A stretch of DNA of 26,484 nt from an uncultured Candidatus Peribacteria bacterium (GTDB lineage: Bacteria > Patescibacteriota > Gracilibacteria > Peribacterales > Peribacteraceae). Location of the stretch: positions 1 to 26,484 of the forward strand of contig CAYUBO010000001.1 of assembly GCA_964443095.1 (NCBI GenBank), written 5' to 3'. The translations under genes were made by a program, and so were the position numbers. Below the pieces are notes generated by a model. That model was not told where the DNA came from. It saw nothing but the letters and a program-made list of their open reading frames with translations, and did not search any database. Shown piece by piece: positions 1,144 through 17,901 of this stretch. How positions within the stretch are numbered: position 1 is the stretch's first letter; each line of letters starts with the position of its first letter.

Positions 1144-1168
1144 TACAGATTTAATTCTTAGTATCTCT

Positions 1169-1174
1169 TATAAT
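1169..1174 (+). promoter_or_regulatory. Perfect -10 hexamer TATAAT 6 nt before ATG 1181 (leaderless-type promoter)
   Basis: ctct-TATAAT-ctaatt-ATG; no SD and no recognisable -35. Confidence 0.7.
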
Positions 1175-1180
1175 CTAATT

Positions 1181-2782
1181 ATGCGGTTTATTTCTTATAT
1201 TAGTCGAGATCGGAGCCTATGCATCATGATTGCATTCGCAATTACAATGACCTTGTATATTGGATTGCTTGCGATTCTCGATCACATTGGACTCAGAACA
1301 CAACTAAATGACCTTGGTCATGCCGAACAGGCCATATGGCAAGCAACACAAGGAAACTTCTCTATGCCACTGACAGACCCCGTCATGTTCCTTTCTAGAT
1401 TTACGACGCACGCGAACATAATTTATTACATTGTTGCAATCCCCTACTTCTTCTTCAAAAGCCCTATCACACTTCTCGTGATTTCTGCACTTGCTTTCGG
1501 TGCTGCAGGAATTTCAATGTATTTCTTGGCAAATACCGTATGTAAGAACAAAACCATCGCACTTGTCCTTGGTAGTGCCATGCTTCTAACTCCTATGATA
1601 CAGGAGACTGCGCTATATGATTTTCATGCGATTATTCTAGCTATTCCTCTCCTCATACTGACTCTGCTATGCATGGAAAAGAAGCGCTGGATTATCTTTT
1701 GGGTATTCGCGTCTCTTCTTCTGATGATAAAGGAAGACATGCCTCTACTGCTAATAGCTTTCAGTCCGCTTATTTTCCTTAGAGGATCCAGGAAGCACGC
1801 GATCATGCTGGTAATTGTTTCAATAACTTACTGGCTTGCAGTTACACACGGAACCGCATATTTCTTTGGCACTAGAGTTGCTGACGAATTCATCTTCACC
1901 AGGTATGCCTACCTTGGTGATTCTGCAAATGAAATTCTGTTGAATGCGATCCTTGAGCCACAAAGATGGATGGAGATAGCCGGTGCGGGTCTTCGCAAGC
2001 GCTACATTCTGTACCTCTTTATGCAGGGTGGATACTTAGCCATCTTCTCACCAATAGCACTTCTAGGATCCATTCCCAATTTTGCACAGAACGTCATGAG
2101 TGCAGCATACCTTCCCCATGCAATAGCAGGAACGTACCACTCAGGGATCATCCTGCTAACGATATACATCGGCTGCGTCTATACATTTAGAAAACTCAAA
2201 CCTCGTTTAAGAAAAATTGTTCTCTCACTATTTGTTGTACAGGTACTCTTGATCACTATTGTGATGAGCCCGATGCCGTATGGAAAGTTCTCTACGTGGA
2301 AAGACTACATGCCTGTTCACAACACTAGCAGATTGCGAGAGATGCTTTCGTTAATTCCAAAAGATGCAGCGGTCGCAGCACAGAACAATCTTGGAGCTCA
2401 TCTCGCATCTAGAGATATCATTGTGAAGCGCCCAGAGTTTTTTGACTACACTGACTACATCGTCCTGAATGTACAGATCCCCGTCTCTCACTTTAACGAT
2501 CTGATGATTCGCTCGCATGCAATGATCGTGGGACATACAATTCCCATCTACAATGATTTTGTGAAAGAGATGTTTGAAAAGGAGGGCTACGGAATCCTAT
2601 ATTACATGCCTCCTTTCTACCTCTTTAAAAAAGGCTACCCTCAGACGATGAATGCGATTGCAGAGATCAACGCCTTACGTGACCTTACTTACTTCCGCTA
2701 CTGCGAGAACAACATCAATGCCGCACTGGGGAACTGTCCGAATGCACCTCTATCACGTAAGCCCAACTTCTGGAGAAACTGA
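1181..2782 (+). CDS. DUF2079-like polytopic membrane protein (putative GT-C glycosyltransferase)
   Basis: 533 aa. N-terminal NDLGHAEQAIWQ acidic loop after TM1, LYDFHA, IKEDMP motifs, about 10 TM segments and a soluble C-terminal domain; this pattern matches DUF2079 proteins as I know them. Confidence 0.75.
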   Translation: MRFISYISRDRSLCIMIAFAITMTLYIGLLAILDHIGLRTQLNDLGHAEQAIWQATQGNFSMPLTDPVMFLSRFTTHANIIYYIVAIPYFFFKSPITLLVISALAFGAAGISMYFLANTVCKNKTIALVLGSAMLLTPMIQETALYDFHAIILAIPLLILTLLCMEKKRWIIFWVFASLLLMIKEDMPLLLIAFSPLIFLRGSRKHAIMLVIVSITYWLAVTHGTAYFFGTRVADEFIFTRYAYLGDSANEILLNAILEPQRWMEIAGAGLRKRYILYLFMQGGYLAIFSPIALLGSIPNFAQNVMSAAYLPHAIAGTYHSGIILLTIYIGCVYTFRKLKPRLRKIVLSLFVVQVLLITIVMSPMPYGKFSTWKDYMPVHNTSRLREMLSLIPKDAAVAAQNNLGAHLASRDIIVKRPEFFDYTDYIVLNVQIPVSHFNDLMIRSHAMIVGHTIPIYNDFVKEMFEKEGYGILYYMPPFYLFKKGYPQTMNAIAEINALRDLTYFRYCENNINAALGNCPNAPLSRKPNFWRN

Positions 2783-2789
2783 TTTTATG

Positions 2790-2866
2790 TGGTCGGGGTG
2801 GCCGGACTTGAACCGGCGACCTCGTCGTCCCGAACGACGCACTCTAGCCAACTGAGCTACACCCCG
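2790..2866 (-). tRNA. tRNA-Pro(CGG)
   Basis: Reverse complement CGGGGTG TA GCTC AGTTGGCTA GAGT G CGTCG TT-CGG-GA CGACG AGGTC GCCGG TTCAAGT CCGGC CACCCCG A CCA: full 77-nt cloverleaf with encoded CCA. Confidence 0.97.
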
Positions 2867-2892
2867 AAATTAATGCCATCCTATCTAAAAAA

Positions 2893-3606
2893 CTAGAAAT
2901 AGAAAGGATTGAAGTTTGTCTTTTTGTCATAAAAATCCTCATGCTCCTTCCTCTTAAGATACCAAGCTACATGATACGTAACCGGAACTAATATAGCTTC
3001 ATAAAGCACTTTAATTACAAACAAAGAAACAATCAGACTTACCGCAATATTCCAGGAAAAGACTCCAAAGATGCATGCTATTCCAATGAATAAGACAGTA
3101 TCGATTGCTTGACCTACCAGCGAGGATCCAATTATTCGCCACCAAAGATGCTTACCTTGCATACCCACCTTCATTTTTGCCAGAACATACGAATTACTTA
3201 ATTCACCAAGGAAAAACCCTACTAAACTTGCAATCATTATTCCCCCTTTTAAAACACCTCCGAAAATCTGATCAAATGCTTCTGTTGTTGTATGAGAAGA
3301 GTCGCCAGGCATCCAACTCACAACTGTTAAGAACAAGCTTGTAAAAAGAGCTGCGAAACAAGCGAGCCACACCATCCTCCTCAACCTCGCATACCCATAT
3401 ACCTCAGTCACAATATCTCCCATTATGTAAGTTATCGGGAAAATAATCGTTCCTGCGGAGATTAGTATCGGCATATTGAAAAAACTTAGTTTGATATCTA
3501 TTACTTTCGCAGCTGAAGCAATATTGCTTAGCAAAAACACCACTACAAACAGCACAAGTAGCATGTCGTAGCATTTATAGGCCTTTCCGTCGTGTACAAA
3601 GCACAT
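2893..3606 (-). CDS. yhhQ: Queuosine precursor transporter (VUT/YhhQ family)
   Basis: SNIASAK, AGTIIFPITYIMGDIVTEVYGY, IASLVGFFLGELSN, RIIGSSLVGQAIDT and KVLYE motifs; about 6-7 TM. Confidence 0.9.
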   Translation of the reverse strand: MCFVHDGKAYKCYDMLLVLFVVVFLLSNIASAAKVIDIKLSFFNMPILISAGTIIFPITYIMGDIVTEVYGYARLRRMVWLACFAALFTSLFLTVVSWMPGDSSHTTTEAFDQIFGGVLKGGIMIASLVGFFLGELSNSYVLAKMKVGMQGKHLWWRIIGSSLVGQAIDTVLFIGIACIFGVFSWNIAVSLIVSLFVIKVLYEAILVPVTYHVAWYLKRKEHEDFYDKKTNFNPFYF

Positions 3607-3964
3607 CAGCGAAAAATTTTACTCTGTAGCTAGGGACAAAGAAAGTTACTTAACGATAAGACGCTTAACCAAAAGGATCTCAGAAATTTCGGAACCTGGC
3701 TTGAGAGTTTATAAAGAACTCGTTTTGCCAAAAGAGCCCTAGTTTAAAAGGATATCAAACCACAGTATCTGACTTTTTGTATACATTATTTATACACAAA
3801 ACCACCAAGAATCAGGTCAGTGCAAGACTGCCCCATAATTTGGATTGAGCCCTAAGTACTGCCACCAAGTATATCTTTACGTCATCAAATGAGAAGCTGT
3901 CAAAGGTTACTAGACAACCGTATCTCTCCCCGTACACTGCCCCACTCTCCTCTAAAACCTTAGA

Positions 3965-4081
3965 ATGATATATACAGTGAAGTACTTACTTCGCCATGCA
4001 TCCTTTCCGCCCGTGGTTCTCCACGTGCTCCTCATCACCCTTTACTCATTCATCATGGTGGTGAGACTCCCTCTCAGTTAG
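3965..4081 (+). CDS. Putative 38-aa Leu/Val/Ile-rich leader peptide or membrane micropeptide (MIYTVKYLLRHASFPPVVLHVLLITLYSFIMVVRLPLS); alternative GTG start at 3977
   Basis: Translated by hand (below the ORF-track cutoff); 17 of 38 residues are L/V/I; lies within a strongly structured RNA that ends in a terminator. Confidence 0.4.
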   Translation: MIYTVKYLLRHASFPPVVLHVLLITLYSFIMVVRLPLS

Positions 4082-4162
4082 GAGAGTAGTAGGATGCAAC
4101 GAGCCCCGTAAGGGAAAACATAAACCTCTCGCAAAAAGTGCAGCGGCACCGAGGGGCTTTTG
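3997..4162 (+). ncRNA. Unclassified multi-stem structured RNA (attenuator-like)
   Basis: TGCATCCT 3997-4004 / AGGATGCA 4091-4098; CGTGG-TTCT-CCACG 4012-4025; CTCATCACC 4031-4039 / GGTGGTGAG 4057-4065; CTCTC-AGTTAG-GAGAG 4071-4086; CCC-GTAA-GGG 4105-4114; terminal stem 4125-4156. G-U pairs work only on the + strand. Confidence 0.55.
4125..4162 (+). terminator. Intrinsic terminator-like hairpin
   Basis: CCTCTCG-CAAAAA-GTGC-AGCG-GCAC-CGAGGGG then CTTTTG; could also act, more weakly, on the convergent gene ending at 4181. Confidence 0.55.
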
Positions 4163-4180
4163 ACCCTATTTTATTCTTGA

Positions 4181-4681
4181 CTACCTCTCAGTTACTTTCA
4201 TAGTACCCTCCGCAACGTGTTGAGCTGGTGCGGGATTCCCATCATCTTTCTCAAGAGTGATAATTACCTTTAGCATATCCCTCAAATCGTCATCTCCGAT
4301 GAATGTTAGAAAGTGCCTCGAATCTCCAAGCTTATTTACAAGGTGCCCTGTGCTGATTGTTTTCCCACCCTTTGTAAGCCATCCCTCATAGAAGTATCCA
4401 TCCTCTGCAGGCTTGATGTTTAACTGTATTGCGTGACCAAAGGTACCATCCTGGAAGAAGTGTGCCTGAGCAACACCATTGGCGGCCACACCCTTCACTC
4501 CTGTCATAGACCCAATGGCAAACCATGTCTCTTCACCATGCTTCGGATCAACCATCTTCCCTCCGGTCGGCATTGCCTGCTGAACCTGATGCACACCTTG
4601 TGACTTCTCAACTACAACTCCCTTGTCACAACCCATGAGAAGCAGGGGCAGAAGCAGAAGCGGTAATAGCAATCTATACAT
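4181..4681 (-). CDS. Lipoprotein with anti-sigma-K factor RskA-like C-terminal domain
   Basis: Signal peptide II with lipobox LLMG-C; YEGWL, STG and ITLEKDDGNPAP motifs resemble the RskA beta-sandwich domain. Confidence 0.65.
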   Translation of the reverse strand: MYRLLLPLLLLPLLLMGCDKGVVVEKSQGVHQVQQAMPTGGKMVDPKHGEETWFAIGSMTGVKGVAANGVAQAHFFQDGTFGHAIQLNIKPAEDGYFYEGWLTKGGKTISTGHLVNKLGDSRHFLTFIGDDDLRDMLKVIITLEKDDGNPAPAQHVAEGTMKVTER

Positions 4682-4703
4682 ATAAAAGGAGGAACGGCGG
4701 TGC

Positions 4704-4712
4704 AGTATAGCA
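4704..4712 (-). promoter_or_regulatory. Extended -10 promoter (TGc-TATACT) for the RskA-like lipoprotein gene
   Basis: Coding strand gTGcTATACTgcaccgccgttcctccttttatATG. Confidence 0.55.
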
Positions 4713-4735
4713 CGTAAGATCTATCCACAAGAGTT

Positions 4736-6742
4736 TTACCAAAGGAATCCCGGTGGCCTGGCTTTCAGGCGCTCTCTTTCGAGTCTTGAATGGAAATCTG
4801 CACGTGCAGCTAGAACCTGATAGAAGGGCGCATCTTTGTAATAGAGTTTCGAAAGCCCCTCAGCAAGCCCCACCGTACCCTCAGCATTCGGTGAAAGAGC
4901 AACGAAGTGGCTATTCCTCTGAACGGCCAGTGCAAACTCCTGAAGAAGGGTATCAAATTCTTCTCTGCGATTATCAACATCTTCTCTCTTCTTAAGAGTA
5001 ATCATCGTTTTGATCAATCTGTTAGCAATATCAACATCGTTGTACTTGCCATAGTTATACGCCTGCGTATACGAATTGAATGCTTTTTGATAATCCTTCA
5101 CGGCAAATGAGATATCTCCCTGCCTCTTCCACGCTCTGTAATCTTTAGAATTGTCCTGGAAGTAATCGTCCAGAGCACCCTGTGCCTCCTCCATCTGCAT
5201 ATTCTCGTAATAGATCTTGGTGCGGCTCAAATCCATGTCTCGCTTAAATTTCTCAAGTTGGGATCTCTCATACCAGGTTATGGCAGTATCCGTATCTCCT
5301 CTCGCTTCTGCATGACGCCCGAACGACGACGTTGTAAGGAATACACCCTCATAAAAAGCAACCACAAGAAGGGCCGTGACAAGAACCAGTTCGGTTAAAT
5401 ACGCGACGCGTTTTGACATCGCTTTGCGCTCGACCGGTATCAATGGAAATGCAAGAAAGGCAACGAATAACCAGAACGGAAGAGCTATGCCTACAAACTG
5501 CAGATTGAAATCTACAAGGTTGTGCAAAATCACTCCTGAAATAGCAACAAAGAGTGCTGCCCTGAATGAGAACACATTCAATTCTTTATCTTTTTCATAG
5601 ATGCTCTTTGCTGTAAACAGCATTACCCATCCAAGCATGATGAAGAACAGAACCATTGGAATGACCCCCCGCTCCATTCCAAGCTTCAGAAAAACATTAT
5701 GAGGATGGTCTGATGTCTGAAGTACTCCTTCCTGCATTCTTGGCTGAATAAATCTGAAGCTGTATGGACCCCACCCAAAAACAGGCCTCTCAAGCATCAA
5801 CGTTCCCGCCTGCACCCAAAACTGTGCTCTCTCTCCAATTGATGATGATCCTTCATCCGCAGTAAATGTAACCTTGCTCTTAACATCCTGTACCTCATAG
5901 AAATGGGAACGGACACTATTCCCTCCAAGAAATACAAGAAATGCTACAGCAGCAACTAAGACAGCTACCGGGAAAACTTTTTCCCATGCGAATCTTTTTC
6001 CATGATGGAAATACAAAACAGAAGTCCACAAAACAAGCTGAATAACAGAAGCAATTATCGCTGCGCGTGAATAGCTTAATAAGAAACATCCAACAACAAG
6101 ACCGAATATCGCACTGCGTACGAGAAGTTCTACTCTGCCTCTTACCGAATTGTTGTTGATGTTGTAATTCTTGAGAGCCCAATACAGAACAACTGGCCAG
6201 ACAAGAAGAAGATACTGCGCCCATGCATTTGGCCAATAGTCTGTGTGGAATCTATGATCAAAGAATGTTCCGACTGCCCTATTGACCGGTTGGAAGACAT
6301 ATACAAAGAGTCCAACTGTGCATGCGATGATTGTTACTATTGATAGAGCTCGGATAAGTTCTCCGTGAAGTTTTACATCTCCTCCGCGACGGACAATCCA
6401 GAGAAACAGCAGAACAAAAGATGTCGTTCGCAAAACTTCATCTAGACCATAGTTTCCCGTTGTCGATAAAAAGAAGCTGGCGATTGTCCATCCTACAAAG
6501 GAAATCAAAGCCACCCACAACCACATTGGAACATGGTCTTTCACATCGGGCTCCATAGATTTCCTGTCCCTGAGAAATGTCATCCACAGAAGGAATGCTG
6601 TAACTCCGGTTAGTATCCACGTCATCTCCAGACTCTTCCCTCCACGCCATAAAACTGCCAATCCACAGAATATTACTAGAATCCACTGACTGGTTGCCTC
6701 ACATTCGAGGGTACGCAGACGCTCACGAGAAAGAAATCTCAT
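4736..6742 (-). CDS. O-antigen ligase/PglL-like membrane protein with C-terminal TPR repeats
   Basis: LLSYSRAAI, ERAQFW, RPVFGWGPYSF and HPHNVFLKLGMERG (Wzy_C/WaaL signature) plus a helical TPR tail. Start at ATG 6742 (MRFL) preferred to 6760 because a promoter-like TGc-AAAGAT sits 6 nt upstream. Confidence 0.8.
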   Translation of the reverse strand: MRFLSRERLRTLECEATSQWILVIFCGLAVLWRGGKSLEMTWILTGVTAFLLWMTFLRDRKSMEPDVKDHVPMWLWVALISFVGWTIASFFLSTTGNYGLDEVLRTTSFVLLFLWIVRRGGDVKLHGELIRALSIVTIIACTVGLFVYVFQPVNRAVGTFFDHRFHTDYWPNAWAQYLLLVWPVVLYWALKNYNINNNSVRGRVELLVRSAIFGLVVGCFLLSYSRAAIIASVIQLVLWTSVLYFHHGKRFAWEKVFPVAVLVAAVAFLVFLGGNSVRSHFYEVQDVKSKVTFTADEGSSSIGERAQFWVQAGTLMLERPVFGWGPYSFRFIQPRMQEGVLQTSDHPHNVFLKLGMERGVIPMVLFFIMLGWVMLFTAKSIYEKDKELNVFSFRAALFVAISGVILHNLVDFNLQFVGIALPFWLFVAFLAFPLIPVERKAMSKRVAYLTELVLVTALLVVAFYEGVFLTTSSFGRHAEARGDTDTAITWYERSQLEKFKRDMDLSRTKIYYENMQMEEAQGALDDYFQDNSKDYRAWKRQGDISFAVKDYQKAFNSYTQAYNYGKYNDVDIANRLIKTMITLKKREDVDNRREEFDTLLQEFALAVQRNSHFVALSPNAEGTVGLAEGLSKLYYKDAPFYQVLAARADFHSRLERERLKARPPGFLW

Positions 6743-6797
6743 ACCCCTATCTTTGCACAAAATACTTGCTTGCGTTAGTAGTTATCACAAACTTAGA

Positions 6798-6884
6798 TGG
6801 TGCCGAAGGAGAGATTTGAACTCTCACGGGGTTGCCCCCACACGCTTCTGAAGCGTGCGCGTCTACCAATTCCGCCACTTCGGC
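6798..6884 (-). tRNA. tRNA-Leu(CAG)
   Basis: Reverse complement GCCGAAG TG GCGGAATTGGTAGACGC G CACGC TT-CAG-AA GCGTG, long variable arm GGGG-GCAA-CCCC, GAGAG TTCAAAT CTCTC, CTTCGGC A CCA; 87 nt. Confidence 0.97.
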
Positions 6885-6967
6885 TCGCTGCTCATTCTCC
6901 CAATCTTATTAACTAACCGCAACAGCATTAGATCAAAAGTTAACTATTGTACTTATAAGCATGAATA

Positions 6968-6995
6968 TTGACACTCTAACTTAATAGGGTATACT
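6968..6995 (+). promoter_or_regulatory. Near-consensus sigma70 promoter TTGACA-N16-TATACT
   Basis: Read directly at 6968-6973 and 6990-6995. Confidence 0.8.
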
Positions 6996-7004
6996 TACAG
7001 CTCA

Positions 7005-7064
7005 ATGCTTTGTTGCATGCACCAATATTGGAATGATTTTTTGCCCCTGAACAGGCGGAGCTAA
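7005..7064 (+). CDS. Putative 19-aa leader peptide MLCCMHQYWNDFLPLNRRS
   Basis: ATG 9 nt after the -10 box; the stop TAA 7062-7064 falls inside the 5' arm of the long leader hairpin. Confidence 0.4.
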   Translation: MLCCMHQYWNDFLPLNRRS

Positions 7065-7117
7065 ACGTATAACATCTCAATTTTGTTAGCCGCCCTGATC
7101 AGGGGAGGTGTTTTTTG
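7044..7117 (+). promoter_or_regulatory. Attenuator-like leader: long hairpin 7044-7105 mutually exclusive with a terminator-like hairpin 7089-7109 plus T tract
   Basis: CCCCTGA/TCAGGGG, GGCGG/CCGCC and CTAA/TTAG pairings versus GCC.CCCT-GATC-AGGG..GGT followed by GTTTTTT. Confidence 0.5.
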
Positions 7118-7118
7118 T

Positions 7119-7826
7119 ATGTCTACTTTTATGAAAACTCTTGGCATCATTGGCGGCATGGGTCCACAGGCCAGCATACGGTTCATGGAACTCGTCATAC
7201 AAAAATGTACCAATGATTTTGGCATCCAAAAAAATGAAGAATTTCCCCGTATTCTTTTGAGTAACCTTCCTGCACCGGACATTATATCCGACCGATCACG
7301 TGAAACAGATGCAGGATCTATGATCAGACAAGAAGCGCTTTGTCTTGAAAATGCCGGTGCTGACTTTCTTGTTATGACTTGCAATACAATGCACTTACTC
7401 AAAAAGCAGATCACAGAAAACGTATCTATTCCTTTTTTATCAATCATTGATACTGTTGTTCAACATGTAGTCTTAAAACAGATTAAGTGCGTTGGCCTTC
7501 TTGGCTCAATTACAACCATGACATCAGACTTGTACATTGCCCCACTTACAGATGCAGGTATCAATGTAATCATTCCAGGGGCAAATGACAGAGCTATTGT
7601 TGGTAATTGCATAATGAGTGTAATTGCAGGCACTTCTTCTATAGAAGATTCGTTAGCTATCCAATCAATTATAAGAAAACTGGAACGGAACGGTACGGGT
7701 TCTGTAATCCTCGGGTGCACGGAACTACCACTTTTGATAAGGCAAAATATGACTCCTGTTCCAATCCTTGACAGCTTAGATCTCTTAGCAGATGCTTCGT
7801 GCAGAGAGATTTTCAGAGTTTCCTGA
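7119..7826 (+). CDS. Aspartate/glutamate racemase family protein (PLP-independent)
   Basis: LGIIGGMGPQAS, VMTCNTMH and ILGCTELP with both catalytic Cys. Start ATG 7119 (or 7131) rather than TTG 7083. Confidence 0.9.
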   Translation: MSTFMKTLGIIGGMGPQASIRFMELVIQKCTNDFGIQKNEEFPRILLSNLPAPDIISDRSRETDAGSMIRQEALCLENAGADFLVMTCNTMHLLKKQITENVSIPFLSIIDTVVQHVVLKQIKCVGLLGSITTMTSDLYIAPLTDAGINVIIPGANDRAIVGNCIMSVIAGTSSIEDSLAIQSIIRKLERNGTGSVILGCTELPLLIRQNMTPVPILDSLDLLADASCREIFRVS

Positions 7827-7835
7827 TTATCAATT

Positions 7836-8186
7836 ATGAAAAGACTCCTCCTATTAACATCGGCGATTCTCCTCACATCCTGTAATCCTGTTACTCCGAA
7901 AGAAGATATTGATGACGAGCTCCCACCTGCACAGACTGTCGAGGAGGCATTCCAGAGAAAGTACCCCGAAGCTGGGAACATAGTCGTTATAGTTAATCAG
8001 TCTTCATCAACAAGATCTCACATTCGCGGGATGGTTAAGATTGATGGACAAGGTGGACTTTTCCTTGCAGCGAATATTGATGGTGGATGGGTAATTGCTT
8101 TTGATGGCAACGGAGCAATCCCCTGCTCTCTTTACGTTGAGTTCCGGTTCCCCGAAGAAATGCTTAAAGATTGCGCAGATATTTAA
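7836..8186 (+). CDS. Hypothetical lipoprotein
   Basis: MKRLLLLTSAILLTS-C lipobox; 116 aa; two further Cys near the C-terminus; 9 nt after the racemase stop. Confidence 0.75.
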   Translation: MKRLLLLTSAILLTSCNPVTPKEDIDDELPPAQTVEEAFQRKYPEAGNIVVIVNQSSSTRSHIRGMVKIDGQGGLFLAANIDGGWVIAFDGNGAIPCSLYVEFRFPEEMLKDCADI

Positions 8187-8213
8187 AAAGTGCGACTTCG
8201 GAAATGTGATTTT

Positions 8214-8241
8214 TTGACTACTCACAACTTAAGAGTATTTT
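8214..8241 (+). promoter_or_regulatory. Promoter TTGACT-N16-TATTTT, 6 nt before GTG 8248 (leaderless type)
   Basis: Read directly from sequence. Confidence 0.6.
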
Positions 8242-8247
8242 CTGCGC

Positions 8248-8910
8248 GTGCCAGCACTCCACCCGATCAGACCACGATTGGATGACCCCCCGGATGTAGA
8301 CCTCGAAGACCTCGATGGGAAGTTGAACTTTAACATGATGGCAGGAATCCTCTTTACTAATGAATCAATGCGCAATGTTGTTGCCCCTCACGGATCAACA
8401 AATGTATTGATTGTTCGCGATAAGCACATAGAACTCCCTGATGGTGTGAATACCTTCCGCAGAGGACCTGCTGTTGAAGGATCATCTACCCCATACTGGG
8501 CAGCAAATGAAAACGTACGTGCACCGGACATTCTCCCTTTTTCTCTTCCAAATATTGATCAGCTTGAGCTCTCGCCCGGACTTCATGTGCCTGATGATGT
8601 ATTAATAGCAAGAATCCAAGCAGCTGTTCAAAGTGAAAAAGCAAAAGTAAATGGTACACCACAGAGAGAAACGACAAGAATGATCAGGAGAATAGGAGCT
8701 GAGCAAAGGAGACGATTCTTTACATTCCCAAGAAATCGCAAAGGAGAGAACATGGATAACCTTACTATCCGCACATGGAGCAAAGAAGAAGAATCGAATC
8801 TCTGGTGGGAACTTCTTTCCTCTCAAGTTTTCGTAACAGAAAAAGATCTTGCACAAAGAAGTAGAGCTAGGCCATCTCAAGCGTCAAGCATTGTTGCTCA
8901 ATTTAGTTAA
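8248..8910 (+). CDS. Hypothetical protein (220 aa, soluble)
   Basis: Only long ORF filling the gap; has its own promoter; no motif recognised. Confidence 0.6.
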   Translation: MPALHPIRPRLDDPPDVDLEDLDGKLNFNMMAGILFTNESMRNVVAPHGSTNVLIVRDKHIELPDGVNTFRRGPAVEGSSTPYWAANENVRAPDILPFSLPNIDQLELSPGLHVPDDVLIARIQAAVQSEKAKVNGTPQRETTRMIRRIGAEQRRRFFTFPRNRKGENMDNLTIRTWSKEEESNLWWELLSSQVFVTEKDLAQRSRARPSQASSIVAQFS

Positions 8911-8911
8911 A

Positions 8912-10564
8912 CTATTTACCTATTATTTCACTGAGCTTCTCTCTTGCAACCTGCATGTTTGGTTCATAGCGCAGAACCTCTTCCAGATAATTGATCGCGA
9001 GATCTGTTTCTCCCTTTGCATCTAGTAGCATCGCAAGATTAAACATTGCAAACACATTATCTCTATCCAATTCGATTGCATTCTGGAACGCATCAATAGC
9101 TTGTGTACCGTAACCTAAACGAACCGATGCGACTCCAACGTTTACCCATGCACGTTCATGATCCGGATTGATCCCCACTGCCTTTTTGCTTGCATCAAGT
9201 GATTCTTCCCATCTCTCCAACTCAGCAAGTGTTACACCGAGGTTGTAGTACGTTCGTGTTGTCTCCTCAACCTCAATTGCCTTTTGATAATGGTCTATCG
9301 CCTTTTGATAATCACCATTACGGTGATGGAAGTAGCCGACGTTGTTATGTGCTATTACTGAATCGGGATAATCAGCAAGAACTTTCTGGAAGAGACTCAT
9401 CGTATCTTTCCATACAATTGATTGTTGCATTGAAAGCATGGAGAAGATTGCAACGAGAATGATGAATAGTAATCTGACGTATCTTCTCTTCTGCCAGAGA
9501 TACCAGATGAAGAGACTGATGATGAGGATTATGCCAACTGACGGCAGATACGCGTATCTGTCTGATGCAAAGTAGATGCGTGCGAGGTCATCCCCTTTTC
9601 TATAGTTTCCGAATGTAGGAACAAGTGTGATCAAAAAGAACACTAGTCCGAATACCAGAGTTCGATGCTCTCTGAATCGACGAATAATCATAATTAATCC
9701 AATCAAGACAAGGGCAGACAAGATGATATCTATATTGAGAAGTGACACTTCCTTCGTATACGGATACATCACAGAAAGATTTGTCGGTACGATCAGTTTT
9801 GAAAGATAAAAAGAAAAACTCCTGATTGAGACAAGGAAAGTCTCGATCAATGGCGCTTCCGCATTCGGATTCTTTCCACCAAGTGCAATGATCAAAAACA
9901 CTACAGCCAGTACAAAGAATGGAATCTTTTCTTTATAAACATTCTTCTTAAACTTTCGTCCTTCTTTGTAATCGATCAATAACAATGCGAAGGGCAAAGT
10001 GATTACTGATACTTTTGAGAGTAGCCCTAATACGTACGTTGCGATTGTCCAATTAAATAATTTTTTCTCTTTTGATCGAACGTATTTGAGGTACAGGACC
10101 AAGCTCAGAAGATAGAAAAGTGCTGAGAGAAGATCTTTCTTCCCGCTCGCCCAAGCAATAGCTTCTGTGTGGAGCGGATGGATCAGAAAGAGCAACCCTG
10201 CGATCAATCCGATCTTTTTTTGCTTCGTAAGAATCGTGAGAAAGTAAAGTACAAGCAGTGAGTTGATAACATGGAGGATGAGACTGCTTAGATGAAACAT
10301 AAACGGACTCCCATGCCCGAGGAATTTATCAACCATGTAACTTACAAACGTTAGCGGAATGTAGAGTTCAGGATCGTAACTTAGAAATGCTTTGCCGATT
10401 TGATACTCCTGCACAATCGGATTGTCATAGATCAACATCCCATCATCAAATTCTACAAATCCATTGAAGAGCGAAGCTGCATAAATTAGAACTCCTAGAA
10501 GTAGGAATCCCCCACCGATCCTTACAGCTTTTAGCTTGCAGCTTTTAGCTTCTAGAAAATTCAT
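8912..10564 (-). CDS. TMTC-like (GT-C) putative protein O-glycosyltransferase with C-terminal TPRs
   Basis: FDDGMLIYDNP acidic loop, YIPLTFVSY, FHLSSLILH, HPLHTEAIAWASG, LLSK, SDRYAYLPS, W-KD...LF and 4-5 TPRs. TAGGAT -10 lies 6 nt before the ATG. Confidence 0.8.
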   Translation of the reverse strand: MNFLEAKSCKLKAVRIGGGFLLLGVLIYAASLFNGFVEFDDGMLIYDNPIVQEYQIGKAFLSYDPELYIPLTFVSYMVDKFLGHGSPFMFHLSSLILHVINSLLVLYFLTILTKQKKIGLIAGLLFLIHPLHTEAIAWASGKKDLLSALFYLLSLVLYLKYVRSKEKKLFNWTIATYVLGLLSKVSVITLPFALLLIDYKEGRKFKKNVYKEKIPFFVLAVVFLIIALGGKNPNAEAPLIETFLVSIRSFSFYLSKLIVPTNLSVMYPYTKEVSLLNIDIILSALVLIGLIMIIRRFREHRTLVFGLVFFLITLVPTFGNYRKGDDLARIYFASDRYAYLPSVGIILIISLFIWYLWQKRRYVRLLFIILVAIFSMLSMQQSIVWKDTMSLFQKVLADYPDSVIAHNNVGYFHHRNGDYQKAIDHYQKAIEVEETTRTYYNLGVTLAELERWEESLDASKKAVGINPDHERAWVNVGVASVRLGYGTQAIDAFQNAIELDRDNVFAMFNLAMLLDAKGETDLAINYLEEVLRYEPNMQVAREKLSEIIGK

Positions 10565-13063: not shown

Positions 13064-13288
13064 ATGAAAAAACTCATCGCAATTACAAGTGTTTTGTTTC
13101 TAACGGCCTGTCAGGCACAAATAGTTCCCGAAGGGGCTCCTGATGAGGAACCACAAGACGGACAAGCATTTAATGAATGCGGAACTAACGGTGTTAAGTG
13201 TTCATGTAACAAGCTCGTTGCAGTAGATGACACAGCTCCCAGCAAAGGAGGTTGTGGATGTGGCAGTAAGTCCTGCAGGAGAATCTAG
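13064..13288 (+). CDS. 74-aa lipoprotein with Cys-rich C-terminus
   Basis: Lipobox LTA-C; six further Cys arranged as C-x6-C-x-C and C-x-C-x4-C. Confidence 0.85.
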   Translation: MKKLIAITSVLFLTACQAQIVPEGAPDEEPQDGQAFNECGTNGVKCSCNKLVAVDDTAPSKGGCGCGSKSCRRI

Positions 13289-13299
13289 CTACCCTCTAT

Positions 13300-14355
13300 A
13301 TGACTGAGAGTTGCCACATGGAACACGGGGCAAGAAAGAAACCTCGCCCGGATATAATCCTCCGCAGCTCCATTGCTTTAATTATTCTTTCGTACGGGAC
13401 GTATCTTTTCCTCCCTGAGATAACAGGAAGTTTCGTTCCGCTCTATAATTTCACATCCACAATATTCGAATTGATGAACAAGATGTGGTGGGGAGTTCTG
13501 CTTGGAATCTTCTTTGTTGGACTTCTGGACCAGATTCCACGCGAGTTCATCATGACAGTGTTGGGTAAGGACGGAAAAGTGAAAGGGATATTCCGTGCAA
13601 CACTTGCTGGAGTTCTTCTTGATCTATGCAGTCACGGGATTCTTCTTGTTGGAATGAAGCTCTACAAACGTGGTGCAAGCCTTGGGCAAGTGATGGCATT
13701 TCTGATAGCAAGCCCGTGGAATTCATTATCACTTACTTTAATCCTTTGGGCATTGGTCGGATTCAAATGGATGATTGCAATGCTTCTTCTTTCGATAGTG
13801 ATAGCTATCATTTCCGGATTGATTTTTGAAGTACTGACTGCGAAAGGCGTGCTCCCGAAGAACCCGAATGCGAGAGCCATTGATGAAAATTTCAACTTCT
13901 GGGGTGAGACAAAGAAAGGACTTTCAAAATTCCGCCCAACTCCCACTTGGTTTGTGAGAAGTACATTGATGGGGCTCGGAGATTCAAAGATGATCTTACG
14001 GTGGATCTTCTTTGGTGTTGTTCTCGCTGCAGCAGTACGAACATTTGTTTCACCGGAAGCCTTTGCAACGTTCTTTGGTCCGACTGCAATGGGTCTTTTG
14101 ATTACTGTAATTGTCGCAACGCTGCTCGAAGTCTGTAGCGAAGGATCATTACCGATAGCTGCTGACATACTCACACGTGCGGGCGCACCAGGAAATGCAT
14201 TCACGTTCCTGATGACAGGAGTATCAACGGATTACACTGAGGTTCTCTCCTTAAAAGAAACAACCCGATCATGGAAAGTAGCATTATTCCTCCCACTAGT
14301 AACCGTCCCACAAGTGATAGCAATAGGATTGATCTTAAATAAATTCGTATCCTAG
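13300..14355 (+). CDS. Predicted permease, DUF318/ArsP-like family
   Basis: Internal two-fold repeat LDLCSHG...GASLGQVMAFLIASP and LEVCSEG...GAPGNAFTFLMTG; about 8-10 TM; Cys/His in the N-terminus. Confidence 0.8.
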   Translation: MTESCHMEHGARKKPRPDIILRSSIALIILSYGTYLFLPEITGSFVPLYNFTSTIFELMNKMWWGVLLGIFFVGLLDQIPREFIMTVLGKDGKVKGIFRATLAGVLLDLCSHGILLVGMKLYKRGASLGQVMAFLIASPWNSLSLTLILWALVGFKWMIAMLLLSIVIAIISGLIFEVLTAKGVLPKNPNARAIDENFNFWGETKKGLSKFRPTPTWFVRSTLMGLGDSKMILRWIFFGVVLAAAVRTFVSPEAFATFFGPTAMGLLITVIVATLLEVCSEGSLPIAADILTRAGAPGNAFTFLMTGVSTDYTEVLSLKETTRSWKVALFLPLVTVPQVIAIGLILNKFVS

Positions 14356-14370
14356 GACTCTTAGGACTCT
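14353..14370. repeat. 9-mer direct repeat TAGGACTCT x2 between convergent stop codons
   Basis: Exact tandem duplication read from sequence. Confidence 0.8.
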
Positions 14371-16794
14371 TTATACTTTGAGATCTTCCTTTCTTATATA
14401 TATCTCATCACCTCTCTTCACTTCATTATTCAACATGTAGTCTGCAATGTAGTTTTCTAATACCTCTGTAATTGTTCTGCGCATTTCTCGTGCACCGAAG
14501 TCAACGCTGTACCCCTTCTCTGCAATCGCACGGACTGCATCTTCTTCTAATCTGAGTGAGATGCCTTTCTTCTCCTGCAGATCGTTTATGATGCTTGTGA
14601 TCATAAGGATCGCAACTTGAACTGCTTCTTCCTGAGAAAGAGGCTCATAAAGAATCACTTCATCGAATCGGTTTACAAACTCCGGGGTGAAGGTGCCTTC
14701 TTTGATGATGGTGTCGATCAATGATTTCTTGAACTGTTCCTTATCCGCACCTTTGTTCTTTGTGATGAAATCGCGAATGAATAGTGCTCCTGCATTAGAC
14801 GTGGCAATGATGACCGTATTCCTAAAGTCTGTCTTTGCTCCTCTGCTATCTGTGAGCATTCCTTCATCCAGTATCTGAAGAAATAGGTTAAGAACTTTCT
14901 TATCTGCTTTCTCAATCTCATCCAAAAGCACAACGGAGAACGGGTGGTCTTGGACCTGTTGCGTTAGGAAGCTCTCGCTTCCGGAACCTGGATCCGGTGA
15001 TCCGATTATCCCGTAGATGGAATCATCATTGCTGTACTCGTTCATGTCTAATCGGATTAAGCTGTCGACTGATCCGAAGTAGAGCTCTGCAAGCGCCTTC
15101 GCAGTTTGAGTTTTTCCAACTCCGGTTGGGCCTAGGAATAGGAAAGTCCCAAGGGGCCTATCTCCTTCATTAATGTCTAGCTTTGCACGCTTGAGAGTAT
15201 TCACAAGTGCGGTAAGTGCATAACGCTGACCAACGATACATTCACCTAGTTGTTCCTCCAGATGAATAAGTTTGTCTTTCTCATCTGTTGATACTTTCTG
15301 CACATTCATCTTGGCCTTTAGAGATACGATCTCCCGTATGTGACCATCTAATACAATCTTTTGACCTGCGTTCTTCGCTGCGAGAACAGCATCTCTAAGT
15401 ACATCGACAGCCTTCCCTGGGAAGCCACCCTTCGTAACATATCGCTTTGTGAGATCTACTATTGATTTGAGTGCTTTGTATGTGACGTTTACATGAGACT
15501 GATGTTCGAGCTTAAAGTACTCTTCCATAAGAACTCCCATAGTCTCTTCGTCTGAAGCATCTTCCAGAGGAATCTTCTCAAACATTGAATCGAGTGCGCT
15601 GTCTGTCTTAACAAGTGAGTGATAATCCTGACTGTCTGCAATTCCTACAACAAATATGTTCTTTTCCTGAAGGAACTTGCTGAGTATCCCCTTCATCTTA
15701 GTATCTCCACTCTGCAGGAAAAGTCCGATGTTTTCTATTACAAGAACGAACTTACCTGACTTGTTTGCAGTCTTGAGTGCATCCAGAAGAATTTGATCCG
15801 GCTTATCGTATCCGGAAAGAAGCTCCTGTGCTTTAAGAAGCCTAACCTGCGTGAACCTAAGATTATGCTCTCGTTCATGCATCCTTAGCATGTATGCAAT
15901 GTTATTTACGAATGTTCTTTTACCCACTCCTGTTCTTCCTGTAATTAGAACATTGTGTTGAGATGAACGACTCAGAACATGAATAGTGCTTTGAATCTGT
16001 TCTTTGTGTATTACAACCTCAAGCTTTCCCTGGAACCGAATCTTATTACTGATATTTTCTGTAAGCGTATCAAATACATTTGTATATCCCTGCACCCAGC
16101 TTCTTCCAAGACTACCGAATTTTTTTACGAGCCCGTTTGGACTGAACAATGGATCTCTTGTGACTTTCAATCGATTGTGAAATATTTCCCACTGAAGAAT
16201 ATGCTTCATGTCTTCCATAGAAATATCACATTCATTTAGAAGTTGATTAAACAGATCTCCCTGCTGCATGAATAAGAACAGAATTACATTTGCATCAATC
16301 TTCTTCTCTTTGAAGACAGGCATTAGCTGCTGTGCTTCTTTAATAAACTCAACTACCTGAACTCCACTCAATTCTTCCTTGCATCGCTCAAGTATGTCTT
16401 TCTTCTCGAGACCCATTTCATCAAGAATAAATTTACCGCGGTCTGTGGATGCAGCTGCATTCAAGAGTGCCTCCGCAGTTATATGCCTTTTGTGCCTTAA
16501 TCTTTTAACAAGTTCATAGCTAAGTTGTGATGCAATGTTTCCTTTAACTAGTGCAGGCTCTTCATCATTTGCAAGTTCTTCAATTACAAATCTGTTTATG
16601 ATGCGAAGCATTACAGTGAGTAGCAATACTCCAACAACTAGCGGTGTCCAGTAATGCGTCTGCCAATCATGAAGTGCAATCGGCAGAAGGAATGCTCCGC
16701 AAATGATCAGAAGTATCGGACCCTCTAGTGCGCTACGGAACACGAATGCCGCGTAGGATTTTGTGCCTGTAATATCAAAAGACTGTCCGAACAT
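14371..16794 (-). CDS. ClpA/ClpB-family AAA+ ATPase with two N-terminal TM helices
   Basis: D2 motifs GPTGVGKT, RLDMNEY, VLLDEIEKA, IIATSN, PEFVNRFD, GAREMRR; D1 Walker A GRTGVGK. Start at ATG 16794 (TAATG overlap with the upstream gene) preferred to 16860. Confidence 0.88.
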   Translation of the reverse strand: MFGQSFDITGTKSYAAFVFRSALEGPILLIICGAFLLPIALHDWQTHYWTPLVVGVLLLTVMLRIINRFVIEELANDEEPALVKGNIASQLSYELVKRLRHKRHITAEALLNAAASTDRGKFILDEMGLEKKDILERCKEELSGVQVVEFIKEAQQLMPVFKEKKIDANVILFLFMQQGDLFNQLLNECDISMEDMKHILQWEIFHNRLKVTRDPLFSPNGLVKKFGSLGRSWVQGYTNVFDTLTENISNKIRFQGKLEVVIHKEQIQSTIHVLSRSSQHNVLITGRTGVGKRTFVNNIAYMLRMHEREHNLRFTQVRLLKAQELLSGYDKPDQILLDALKTANKSGKFVLVIENIGLFLQSGDTKMKGILSKFLQEKNIFVVGIADSQDYHSLVKTDSALDSMFEKIPLEDASDEETMGVLMEEYFKLEHQSHVNVTYKALKSIVDLTKRYVTKGGFPGKAVDVLRDAVLAAKNAGQKIVLDGHIREIVSLKAKMNVQKVSTDEKDKLIHLEEQLGECIVGQRYALTALVNTLKRAKLDINEGDRPLGTFLFLGPTGVGKTQTAKALAELYFGSVDSLIRLDMNEYSNDDSIYGIIGSPDPGSGSESFLTQQVQDHPFSVVLLDEIEKADKKVLNLFLQILDEGMLTDSRGAKTDFRNTVIIATSNAGALFIRDFITKNKGADKEQFKKSLIDTIIKEGTFTPEFVNRFDEVILYEPLSQEEAVQVAILMITSIINDLQEKKGISLRLEEDAVRAIAEKGYSVDFGAREMRRTITEVLENYIADYMLNNEVKRGDEIYIRKEDLKV

Positions 16795-17210
16795 TATCCG
16801 TAGAACGAAGCGAGAATGAATATCACTCCCTGAATAAACAGAAGTGGGAATGTAATCCACGTCAGGAAGTAAACAATGTAGAACTGAAGCAATATGATCT
16901 GTGCAACTAATCCGAATGCGATCGTAACTATTCTGAATATAAAGCCGATTACACGAGCCGTGATATTCAAAGTAAGCGTCTGCATAATTTGCCCAAACGC
17001 CATGAGGTTCTTTGGATACTTATCTGTAATATTTTTCCACGGTGAGAAGAGCGTCATTATCAAGAACGGGATCGAGATGATCTCGTTGAAGGCTGTTAAG
17101 TACGCGATGTAGTTTTTAATGATTCGAACAGGTTCCTCTACGAAATACCAATGCGGCAACCTGATCGCTATTGCAGCGAGCAGGAACGGATGCCTACAGA
17201 GGTGTATCAC
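16794..17210 (-). CDS. Small hypothetical membrane protein translationally coupled to the Clp ATPase
   Basis: About 138 aa from GTG 17210; WYF, TLFSPWK and RVIGFIFR motifs with hydrophobic helices. The longer 17357 start would overlap tmk and lie upstream of the TATAAT at 17244-17249. Confidence 0.75.
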   Translation of the reverse strand: MIHLCRHPFLLAAIAIRLPHWYFVEEPVRIIKNYIAYLTAFNEIISIPFLIMTLFSPWKNITDKYPKNLMAFGQIMQTLTLNITARVIGFIFRIVTIAFGLVAQIILLQFYIVYFLTWITFPLLFIQGVIFILASFYG

Positions 17211-17243
17211 TCCGAACAGAGTCAGTTTTGGTATTATCCTGTA

Positions 17244-17267
17244 ATTATAGCAAAAAACTGCTATTCT
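17244..17267. promoter_or_regulatory. Back-to-back divergent extended -10 promoters
   Basis: Minus strand TGc-TATAAT (17244-17252); plus strand TGc-TATTCT (17259-17267), 7 nt before the tmk ATG. Confidence 0.65.
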
Positions 17268-17274
17268 TTGAAGG

Positions 17275-17901
17275 ATGAAGAATTTACAAGGCGCATTCAT
17301 TGTTATGGAGGGCCCAGATGGCAGCGGAACGACATACCACAGCAAAAACCTGCTCAAAAAGCTTCAGGAGTGTGGAATTGATGTAATCTCAACCTCAGAG
17401 CCCACTGATGGCGGAATCGGGAAGGAAATACGCACTCTCCTGCACTCTCCAAAACTCCCATCTCCGGATGCTGTCCAATTGCTGTTCTGTGCAGATCGTG
17501 CAGACCATGTGGCAAATCTGATACAACCAGCTCTTAATGAAGGAAAGACTGTCATCTCAGATAGATATTCACTCTCAACAATCATTTATGGGAAAGCGCT
17601 GGGCTTAGATGAGCAGTGGCTTAAGGAGATAAACAGCAGATTCCCGCCGCCCGACCTCACGATTGTGACTCTTCCTCCATTCGAGATATGTGAAAGGAGA
17701 AGAGGCAGGCGCGATGTTTTGGACCAATTTGAGGAGTCATCCTTCCAGAAAGATGTATACAATTACTACAGCGAGATTGATGATCCCGCGACAATATTTA
17801 TAGACACATCTGCATCTCAGGAAGAAGTGAGCGAAAATATCTGGAGTAGTGTGCAGAAGTACTTTGGGCCAATTTCGAGGAAGATGATCGCCGACTTATA
17901 A
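17275..17901 (+). CDS. tmk: Thymidylate kinase (with non-canonical P-loop)
   Basis: FIVMEGPDGSG, SEPT, LLFCADRADH, VISDRYSLS and PDLTI motifs. Confidence 0.88.
   Translation: MKNLQGAFIVMEGPDGSGTTYHSKNLLKKLQECGIDVISTSEPTDGGIGKEIRTLLHSPKLPSPDAVQLLFCADRADHVANLIQPALNEGKTVISDRYSLSTIIYGKALGLDEQWLKEINSRFPPPDLTIVTLPPFEICERRRGRRDVLDQFEESSFQKDVYNYYSEIDDPATIFIDTSASQEEVSENIWSSVQKYFGPISRKMIADL

Follow-up and report, generated by a model that had tools for sequence, protein, structure and literature searches.

A conserved two-gene module of Patescibacteria that joins a membrane-anchored Clp/Hsp100-like ATPase to a small membrane protein

Two adjacent minus-strand genes of the window, by which the whole analysed stretch of 26,484 nucleotides from an uncultured Candidatus Peribacteria bacterium is meant, encode a small membrane protein and a Clp/Hsp100-like ATPase that begins with two transmembrane (TM) helices. 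These genes constitute a conserved module which, in the sampled phyla, is found only in Patescibacteria (the Candidate Phyla Radiation, CPR). Clp/Hsp100 proteins are textbook soluble threading motors. The products of the module may well form an obligate, ClpP-independent membrane AAA+ complex of two subunits that works without classical substrate threading, a reading to which a probability of roughly 55% is given. New in this analysis are the degeneration of the first AAA+ module (D1), the loss of the pore-loop tyrosines from both rings (D1 and D2), the range of the partner protein, the polyphyly of natural fusions, the structural support for a Clp_N domain and a lead from transposon sequencing (Tn-seq).

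The two open reading frames (ORFs) lie on the minus strand between the divergent tmk gene (17275-17901, plus strand) and a convergent ArsP-type permease gene (13300-14355, plus strand):

16794-17210, minus strand: small membrane subunit, 138 amino acids (aa) plus stop (coding 16797-17210, stop TAA 16794-16796)
14371-16794, minus strand: Clp/Hsp100-like membrane-anchored ATPase, 807 aa plus stop (coding 14374-16794)
16792-16796, minus strand: TAATG stop/start overlap, in which one base is common to the ATPase ATG (16792-16794) and the TAA of the small ORF, indicating translational coupling

The TAATG overlap, which was already described in the initial annotation, is thus present at the junction, and the junctions of relatives are similarly tight. 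The small gene starts with a GTG at 17208-17210, in agreement with the gene call of the source record (P0073), and the resultant length of 138 aa is consistent with that of ATG-started homologues (131-145 aa). This ORF can barely be extended in the 5' direction because tmk begins at 17275 on the opposite strand. No third gene follows the ATPase gene in the window, as the ArsP-type permease gene is convergent.

Co-inheritance of the two genes is seen in the GTDB family of the host and throughout the phylum. When the N-terminal 300 aa of the ATPase were used as a query in this family and in the rest of the class, full-length matches were obtained in 11 of the 22 other family genomes, all of which are about 98-100% complete, and in none of the sampled genomes from the rest of the class. 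This patchy spread suggests loss or lateral acquisition. In all of the same-family loci (12/12), the small ORF is located directly 5' of the ATPase gene, with the stop and start codons overlapping or at most 8 nt apart, and the module is present as a single copy in a conserved housekeeping context (tmk, folD, purF and groESL). The nearest homologues carry the names Candidatus Peregrinibacteria or Peribacteraceae, and the window sequence is present in marine and seawater metagenomes (DNA runs only).

A first profile of the small protein detected 113 of the 401 sampled Patescibacteria genomes, and the small-protein profile found 1252 cluster representatives among 1.84 billion. In the phylum sample, an ATPase homologue is encoded directly downstream on the same strand in every locus with downstream DNA (27/27), and in 16 distant loci the junction measures between -20 and +9 nt. 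For members of the ATPase clade that apparently had no partner, a divergent small protein was found upstream or fused. With a widened profile (A7) that includes these divergent versions, the small domain is present in 221/401 Patescibacteria (55%), corresponding to 201/338 high-quality genomes and 186/320 genera, with exactly one copy in each positive genome; one genome flagged as unpublished (G347) is counted only as one of the 401. Profile A7 matched none of the genomes of three other phyla (0/141 each, 0/423 in total), namely those to which the Streptococcus, Erwinia and Chloroflexi genomes of loci L015, L052 and L041 belong. The suggestion of the initial annotation that a similar pair recurs in CPR genomes is therefore borne out by both profile and synteny. 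The module also occurs in metagenome-assembled genome records titled 'uncultured Gammaproteobacteria bacterium' (L014, L016, L017 and L021); these are probably mislabelled CPR genomes, as they are only 0.7-1.2 Mb in size.

Natural fusions link the two proteins still more closely. All of the long matches to the small-protein hidden Markov model (10/10) are N-terminal fusions to the ATPase. One fusion (P0104) is located at the orthologous tmk/folD/purF/groESL locus and shares 39% identity with the small protein and 51% with the ATPase; another (P0123) measures 912 aa in each of 20 members of its cluster, which come from assemblies of ENA, JGI and Logan. The existence of these fusions argues that the small protein is an integral subunit. 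In a tree of 66 sequences, the module ATPases, including that of the window, are monophyletic (SH-like support 0.963) and separate from ClpC, ClpB and TssH. The fused forms occupy about seven separate positions, indicating repeated fusion or fission. The module clade is defined by a hydrophobic N-terminus, a dead D1, a catalytic set in D2 only, the absence of pore tyrosines, and a small protein of the pattern WY...PW(K/R)...R..G...R...W...P that is encoded adjacently on the 5' side or fused.

The N-terminal part of the ATPase contains a membrane anchor followed by a divergent Clp_N-fold domain:

16591-16725, minus strand: TM helices 1 and 2 at the N-terminus, spanning roughly residues 24-42 and 50-68, separated by a short acidic/aromatic loop and followed by Arg residues after TM2
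16099-16578, minus strand: divergent Clp_N-fold domain, residues 73-232 (hhalign, PDB profile search, AlphaFold2 and Foldseek)

Kyte-Doolittle peaks of 2.2 are present at residues 21-45 and 48-72, and the positions of both hydrophobic helices are conserved in all relatives, near and distant. An N-in/C-in topology fits this hairpin, because arginines come after TM2. A Pfam scan of the ATPase gave matches to AAA_lid_9 (PF17871), AAA_2 (PF07724; 5.9e-45) and ClpB_D2-small (PF10431; 4.1e-18), and none to Clp_N. Alignment of residues 73-232 with Clp_N by hhalign gave a probability of 88% (E 2.9e-6), and a PDB profile search with this domain retrieved the N-domains of HSP101 (1.7e-6), ClpB (0.015) and ClpA. 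The AlphaFold2 model of the domain has a pLDDT of 86.9, and its top 50 Foldseek matches in the PDB are all Clp/Hsp100 N-domains (TM-scores 0.45-0.61). By this model, the region is a divergent Clp double-repeat N-domain despite the missing Pfam match. Both elements, the two TM helices and the Clp-N-like helices after them, had been proposed in the initial annotation. In a divergent 'sister' subgroup (L179:1017-3791; L184, reverse complement 1230-4001; L183), the ATPase starts with a Cys4 zinc-ribbon-like motif (CxxC...CxxC) ahead of the TM helices.

The remainder of the ATPase is that of a class-I Clp/Hsp100 derivative from a ClpA-like ancestor. PDB profile matches of the full-length protein reach 1e-190, with ClpC scoring best (3j3t, 6em8). 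The full-length profile aligns with residues 15-735 of ClpA as a single stretch, and therefore there is no M domain; the M-domain insertion is likewise absent from the alignment with the ClpC protein of the host genome. The ClpP-docking tripeptide (IGF/VGF/IGL) is absent after D2 sensor-1 (ATSNAGALFIRDF), where the chain is shorter by roughly 10 residues than that of the host ClpC. Scores are far below the NCBIfam cut-offs for ClpB (TIGR03346; 356.8 bits, cut-off 1232), ClpA (TIGR02639; 351.7 bits, cut-off 993; PRK11034; 279.8, cut-off 1350) and ClpV/TssH (TIGR03345; 294 bits, cut-off 885).

The host genome (1.22 Mb, 165 contigs, about 81% complete) encodes its own canonical Clp proteins elsewhere. 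The Clp ATPase on contig C42 has two Pfam Clp_N matches. In alignment it also shows the M-domain insertion, the pore loops KYRG and GYVG, the arginine fingers ERRFQ and the IGF loop, features that mark it as an ordinary ClpC. ClpP is encoded on contig C79, and a third, partial AAA_2 protein on contig C142. The absence of an M domain and of an IGF/L loop from the window ATPase, which the initial annotation had noted, is thus seen against a host ClpC that possesses both. That the ATPase might simply be a conventional ClpP partner of the ClpA/ClpC type, or a disaggregase of the ClpB type, with a chance hydrophobic N-terminus is highly improbable, and this alternative was rejected: its single-stretch alignment with ClpA is set against sub-cut-off scores (ClpB, 357 vs 1232; ClpA, 352 vs 993), the missing motifs of loop, M domain, D1 and pore, a separate clade, and a host that has its own IGF-containing ClpC plus ClpP.

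The two AAA+ modules differ sharply in their motifs, which are as follows:

15220-16062, minus strand: D1 AAA+ module, catalytically degenerate (motif alignment)
15913-15939, minus strand: D1 Walker A GRTGVGKRT, with Arg at the place of the Mg-binding Thr
15796-15822, minus strand: D1 pore-loop site LLSGYDKPD, without KYR; the AG-KYRG-EFE loop is shortened to SGYD---KPD
15730-15750, minus strand: D1 Walker B FVLVIEN, with VIEN in place of IDE; the Glu is lost
15574-15597, minus strand: D1 arginine-finger site ALDSMFEK, replacing ALERRFQ; both arginine fingers are lost
14374-15219, minus strand: D2 AAA+ module plus D2-small, catalytically intact (Pfam and motif alignment)
15109-15132, minus strand: D2 Walker A GPTGVGKT
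14968-15003, minus strand: D2 pore loop GSPDPGSGSESF, without GYVG
14905-14928, minus strand: D2 Walker B LLDEIEKA
within 14767-14805, minus strand: D2 sensor-1 ATSNAG
14659-14685, minus strand: D2 arginine finger in PEFVNRFDE
14476-14499, minus strand: D2 sensor-2 FGAREMRR

Judged by these motifs, D1 is a dead, structural pseudo-ATPase and D2 is the only working engine. The pattern extends to the whole set of 47 module ATPases from distant CPR lineages that was surveyed: the arginine fingers and the KYR pore loop of D1 are lost in 47/47, and the complete D2 catalytic set (Walker A, Walker B, sensor-1, arginine finger and sensor-2) is kept in 47/47. The canonical 'DE' of the D1 Walker B is retained by only a few lineages and is lost in that of the window.

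The D2 pore loop is altered as well. The alignment reads GSPDPGS--GSESF where G-A-P-P-GYVG-Y-E-E-G-G is canonical, and the sole aromatic residue of the window loop is its terminal Phe, at a position that varies across the clade (F, Y, L, I, Q and others). The GYVG tyrosine is gone from nearly all of the 47 ATPases, with L164 keeping a Gly-Tyr (AGYGK), and the loop is 2-6 residues shorter in most of them. A nearby aromatic residue is found in some subfamilies, namely a Tyr in DPRY (part of the window's subfamily) and a Phe in PGTKDF (the sister subgroup).

The small protein has no family in Pfam, NCBIfam, PADLOC or the ESM Atlas. Its conserved motifs in the window's protein are W21-Y, P27, F-S, T-L-F-x-P57-W58-K, N82..R86..G89...R93 and W118...P122, which recur family-wide as W-Y/W, F-S, T-L-F-x-P-W-K/R, N..S-R..G...R and W...P. 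The AlphaFold2 model (pLDDT 92.6) consists of helices 8-45 and 47-55, a loop and a long helix 72-137, at the end of which the C-terminal 44-45 residues are hydrophobic. The protein had initially been described as polytopic with roughly 138 residues; the length holds from the GTG, and the predicted fold is a long helical hairpin that is not clearly polytopic. A Foldseek search of the PDB with this model gave no match at E<=0.001, only generic long helical hairpins, and no AAA-like fold. The head contains nine K/R against four D/E, and the hydrophobic helix is bordered by conserved arginines, so that by the positive-inside rule the head would be cytoplasmic. Residue 103, in the middle of the hydrophobic helix, is Q in the window's family and E in many distant members (alignment A4), and this Gln/Glu is possibly a buried polar contact or an ion site. 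In the 'sister' subgroup, the partner is without a loop of about 19 residues, and PMYG/PYH replaces PWK.

A complex prediction with residues 1-235 of the ATPase and the small protein gave a score of 0.43 (best control 0.00), which is weak support; the mark used for such scores is reached by 58/80 solved complexes and by 2/110 mismatched pairs, and at scores of 0.60 or below by 7 of those 80 solved complexes and by both mismatches. The predicted interface brings together the N-terminal segment and TM2 of the ATPase (residues 9-18 and 39-74) and the N-terminus and last helix of the small protein (residues 3-26 and 121-136).

These features can be assembled into the following working model of the two-subunit membrane complex. 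The large subunit would be held in the membrane by its N-in/C-in helical hairpin and would carry the Clp_N-fold domain. The D1 ring would act as a scaffold, and ATP would be bound and hydrolysed by the D2 ring alone. The small subunit, a helical-hairpin membrane protein, would pack on the TM hairpin and the N-terminal segment of the ATPase; translational coupling, and a single polypeptide in many lineages, would fix the proportion of the subunits. In the mode of action judged most likely, nucleotide-driven movements of D2 would be passed via D1 and the N-domain to the membrane-embedded helices. The outcome might be remodelling or gating of the small subunit, or of a membrane or envelope client; alternatively, the ring movements might act on clients that the Clp_N domain holds. 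The contribution to membrane or envelope upkeep would be accessory, not essential.

The absence of a ClpP loop, of an M domain and of aromatic pore-loop residues argues against feeding of ClpP and against classical hand-over-hand threading. Torsins, AAA+ proteins related to Clp/Hsp100, have no aromatic residues in their pore loops, are sited at membranes and act with a dedicated TM cofactor (review, PMC5425593). As a role as ClpP partner, as DnaK-coupled disaggregase or as classical threading motor does not fit the module, a torsin-like logic is favoured here. A bolder version, in which an Hsp100-type ring no longer processes polypeptides at all and D2 ATP hydrolysis drives a dedicated TM subunit, only in CPR among the sampled phyla, is tentative and somewhat doubtful. 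If true, it would mean that Clp/Hsp100 proteins of bacteria can work on a new principle, for instance by remodelling the membrane or envelope in an ATP-gated manner at the surface of an episymbiont.

Several points weigh against a non-threading two-subunit complex. Losing the canonical tyrosine is no proof of a loss of translocation: unconventional pore contacts are possible, and some subfamilies keep a Tyr or Phe nearby. The hexamer is assumed by analogy with the behaviour of the family, and for every member the complex, its mechanism and its role are drawn from sequence and predicted models. The complex prediction favours the pairing weakly. The natural fusions have either one hydrophobic stretch between the head and the AAA+ part (L151/L153) or a stretch plus one TM helix (L177/L178/L166/P0104), and these conflicting helix counts are hard to fit to a small subunit with one span or with two. 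The ATPase clade is detected in some genomes in which the small domain scores below threshold, and thus 'always paired' holds only for the loci inspected. As about half of the window's GTDB family (11/22 genomes) are without the module, it is dispensable, and its role may be niche-specific.

The initial annotation envisaged a membrane extraction, secretion or pilus-remodelling motor. All of these imply polypeptide threading, and they are not supported because the pore-loop aromatics have been lost from both rings; the catalytic residues of D1 are lost as well. The gene 3' of the ATPase varies among loci (DUF4015, PKD, C39-like peptidase and unknowns), its product being in most cases an extracytoplasmic protein with a membrane anchor. 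Neither a conserved third gene nor a conserved link to pilus or secretion genes was seen among the loci sampled, and a pilus or secretion role is therefore not supported in this sample.

The first alternative to weigh is a true unfoldase or extractase. A membrane-anchored Hsp100 hexamer might pull misfolded or tail-anchored membrane proteins out of the membrane, as FtsH and Msp1 do, via non-canonical pore contacts, with the small protein as an adaptor or insertion site. The module keeps a Clp_N-fold domain, which binds substrates or adaptors in relatives, its D2 is fully competent, it is anchored in the membrane as FtsH and Msp1 are, and the Tyr of DPRY and the Phe of PGTKDF might provide the contacts. 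However, the aromatic-hydrophobic pore motif is gone from both rings clade-wide, most members have a D2 loop that is 2-6 residues shorter, and that of the window (GSPDPGSGSESF) contains no aromatic residue before its terminal Phe, which is at a variable position. No associated protease or ClpP loop is present, and the D1 ring, which in ClpA, ClpB and ClpC helps to hold the substrate, is dead. Extraction is thus considered unlikely.

A distinctly less probable alternative is a transport motor, in which at least 24 TM helices (6 x [2 + 1-2]), arranged as a ring, would make up a conduit beneath the AAA+ ring for moving a polymer or lipid through the membrane, comparable to HSP101-EXP2 in the Plasmodium PTEX translocon. 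The subunits are obligately membrane-embedded, the downstream genes are variable but usually encode membrane-anchored extracytoplasmic proteins, and many members have the Q/E midway in the hydrophobic helix of the small subunit. In sequence and in fold, the N-domain matches that of PTEX HSP101 best, but this match is only marginally above those of ClpB, ClpC and ClpA and is probably functionally meaningless. Moreover, pore-loop residues for pushing a polypeptide are missing, the loop residues being acidic or small, no conserved cargo gene accompanies the pair, and mutants of a candidate Southlakia pair (see below) are viable.

An accessory defence or mobile-element module, composed of an AAA+ ATPase and a membrane effector, is very improbable: the partial matches to the PADLOC models DolB and PDC-M37B and the patchiness in the window's family are countered by the fact that those matches span generic D2 only and the small protein matches no PADLOC model, by the single-copy housekeeping synteny (tmk, folD, purF, groESL) without nearby mobility genes, and by the occurrence in 55% of sampled CPR genomes and 186 genera; a defence-system identity was rejected.

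A clue to the physiological role of the two-subunit complex might come from Saccharibacteria, in which loci carrying the module are found. In the cultivated saccharibacterium Southlakia epibionticum, SEML1_0701, a 127-aa hypothetical protein gene, overlaps by 22 nt SEML1_0700, whose 860-aa product is annotated as 'AAA family ATPase' and has AAA_2 at 544-706, D2-small at 713-792 and no Clp_N (Wang et al., 2023; PMC10633639). In Tn-seq, both genes were non-essential at T0 and T1 and classed as 'growth defect' at T2, and their reads fell in parallel (SEML1_0700, 4124, 2517 and 1638; SEML1_0701, 258, 157 and 51; PMC10633639). The kinship of this look-alike pair with the module is one of architecture, not sequence, as the S. 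epibionticum genome was absent from the 151 Saccharimonadales genomes searched by the published coordinates; this counts among the points against the working model. The divergent neighbour of SEML1_0700/0701 is murT/gatD (SEML1_0702-0703; PMC10633639). In two other loci (L167 and L170), mraZ-rsmH is located two genes downstream of the module; cell-wall and division neighbours are too few for a trend.

Found in over half of the Patescibacteria sampled and in 0/423 genomes of three other phyla, the module is a candidate for a lineage-defining part of the cell biology of CPR, organisms whose upkeep of membrane and envelope is poorly understood; the lineage carrying it represents a large share of bacterial diversity. 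A survey of CPR-enriched families reported 106 families, mostly unannotated and often membrane proteins, and Clp is unmentioned there (Meheust et al., 2019). Full-text literature searches returned no description of the ATPase/small-protein family. The module is tractable, as it consists of two genes and has natural single-chain fusions, and cultivable, transformable Saccharibacteria appear to carry it, with viable mutants of the look-alike pair. It also offers a natural test for AAA+ mechanisms, namely what an Hsp100 ring is capable of without pore tyrosines.

A promoter-like site precedes the small gene:

17244-17272, minus strand: TTCAAA, 17-nt spacer and extended -10 TGcTATAAT (10/12 matches plus TG), 34 nt 5' of the GTG

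This is the top-scoring site of its kind within 14200-17500, and the number of promoter-like sites around the module is not above that in shuffled sequence. The module had been credited with its own TGc-TATAAT promoter; the motif is genuine as sequence, and the site is a plausible candidate promoter. At the other end, 15 nt separate the permease stop (14355) from the ATPase stop (14371), and a terminator-like hairpin on the plus strand (14350-14366) spans this gap. Directly 5' of the ArsP_1 'predicted permease' (13300-14355, plus strand) is a 74-aa ORF (13064-13288, plus strand) that combines a signal resembling those of lipoproteins (…LFLTAC) with a tail rich in Cys (CSCNK…GGCGCGSKSC); the two possibly form a metal-binding lipoprotein/permease pair. 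Farther away, positions 1-10564 contain a cluster resembling envelope glycosylation genes, which includes two tandem DUF2079 membrane proteins (1-2782), a Vut_1 transporter, an RskA_C-like protein, a Wzy_C O-antigen-ligase-like protein (4739-6760) and a protein with PMT_2 and TPR (8915-10564).

Among known systems, ClpA shares with the module ATPase the order N-domain, D1, D2 and D2-small, the Clp_N fold and the absence of an M domain. Unlike ClpA, the module ATPase has two TM helices before the N-domain, an obligate small membrane partner and no IGL loop, and has lost the D1 Walker A Thr, Walker B Glu, arginine fingers and KYR, and the D2 GYVG. ClpC gives the best full-length PDB profile scores and has the D2 catalytic motifs in common with the window ATPase, whereas the two Pfam Clp_N matches, M-domain insertion, KYRG/GYVG loops, ERRFQ and IGF of the host ClpC all have no counterpart in it. 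ClpB and Hsp104 are likewise ClpP-independent two-ring Hsp100 proteins with a similar D2 and D2-small; the window ATPase differs from them in being membrane-embedded, in its dead D1 and in the absence of pore tyrosines and of the coiled-coil M domain, and because this domain is absent no DnaK coupling is expected. From ClpV/TssH it is distinguished by a score below the cut-off and a position outside the TssH clade.

Membrane-associated AAA+ systems provide a second set of comparisons. FtsH and Msp1/ATAD1 are likewise anchored by a TM segment at the N-terminus and have their AAA+ ring in the cytoplasm, but they belong to the classical AAA clade and have a single ring with aromatic pore loops, and FtsH also has a protease domain. 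In Plasmodium PTEX, an Hsp100 (HSP101) is docked at a membrane pore (EXP2), and its N-domain is the top match of that of the window ATPase; HSP101 is, however, soluble, with an M domain, active rings and pore tyrosines, and the partners are unrelated. Torsin is a luminal protein with a single AAA+ module that receives its arginine finger from the cofactor, whereas the window ATPase has two modules and its own D2 arginine finger (NRFD) and sensor-2 (GAR), and the small partner shows no AAA-like fold. The likeness to torsin with LAP1/LULL1 is therefore an analogy of action mode only, in which a Clp/Hsp100-related ATPase would act at a membrane with a dedicated partner.

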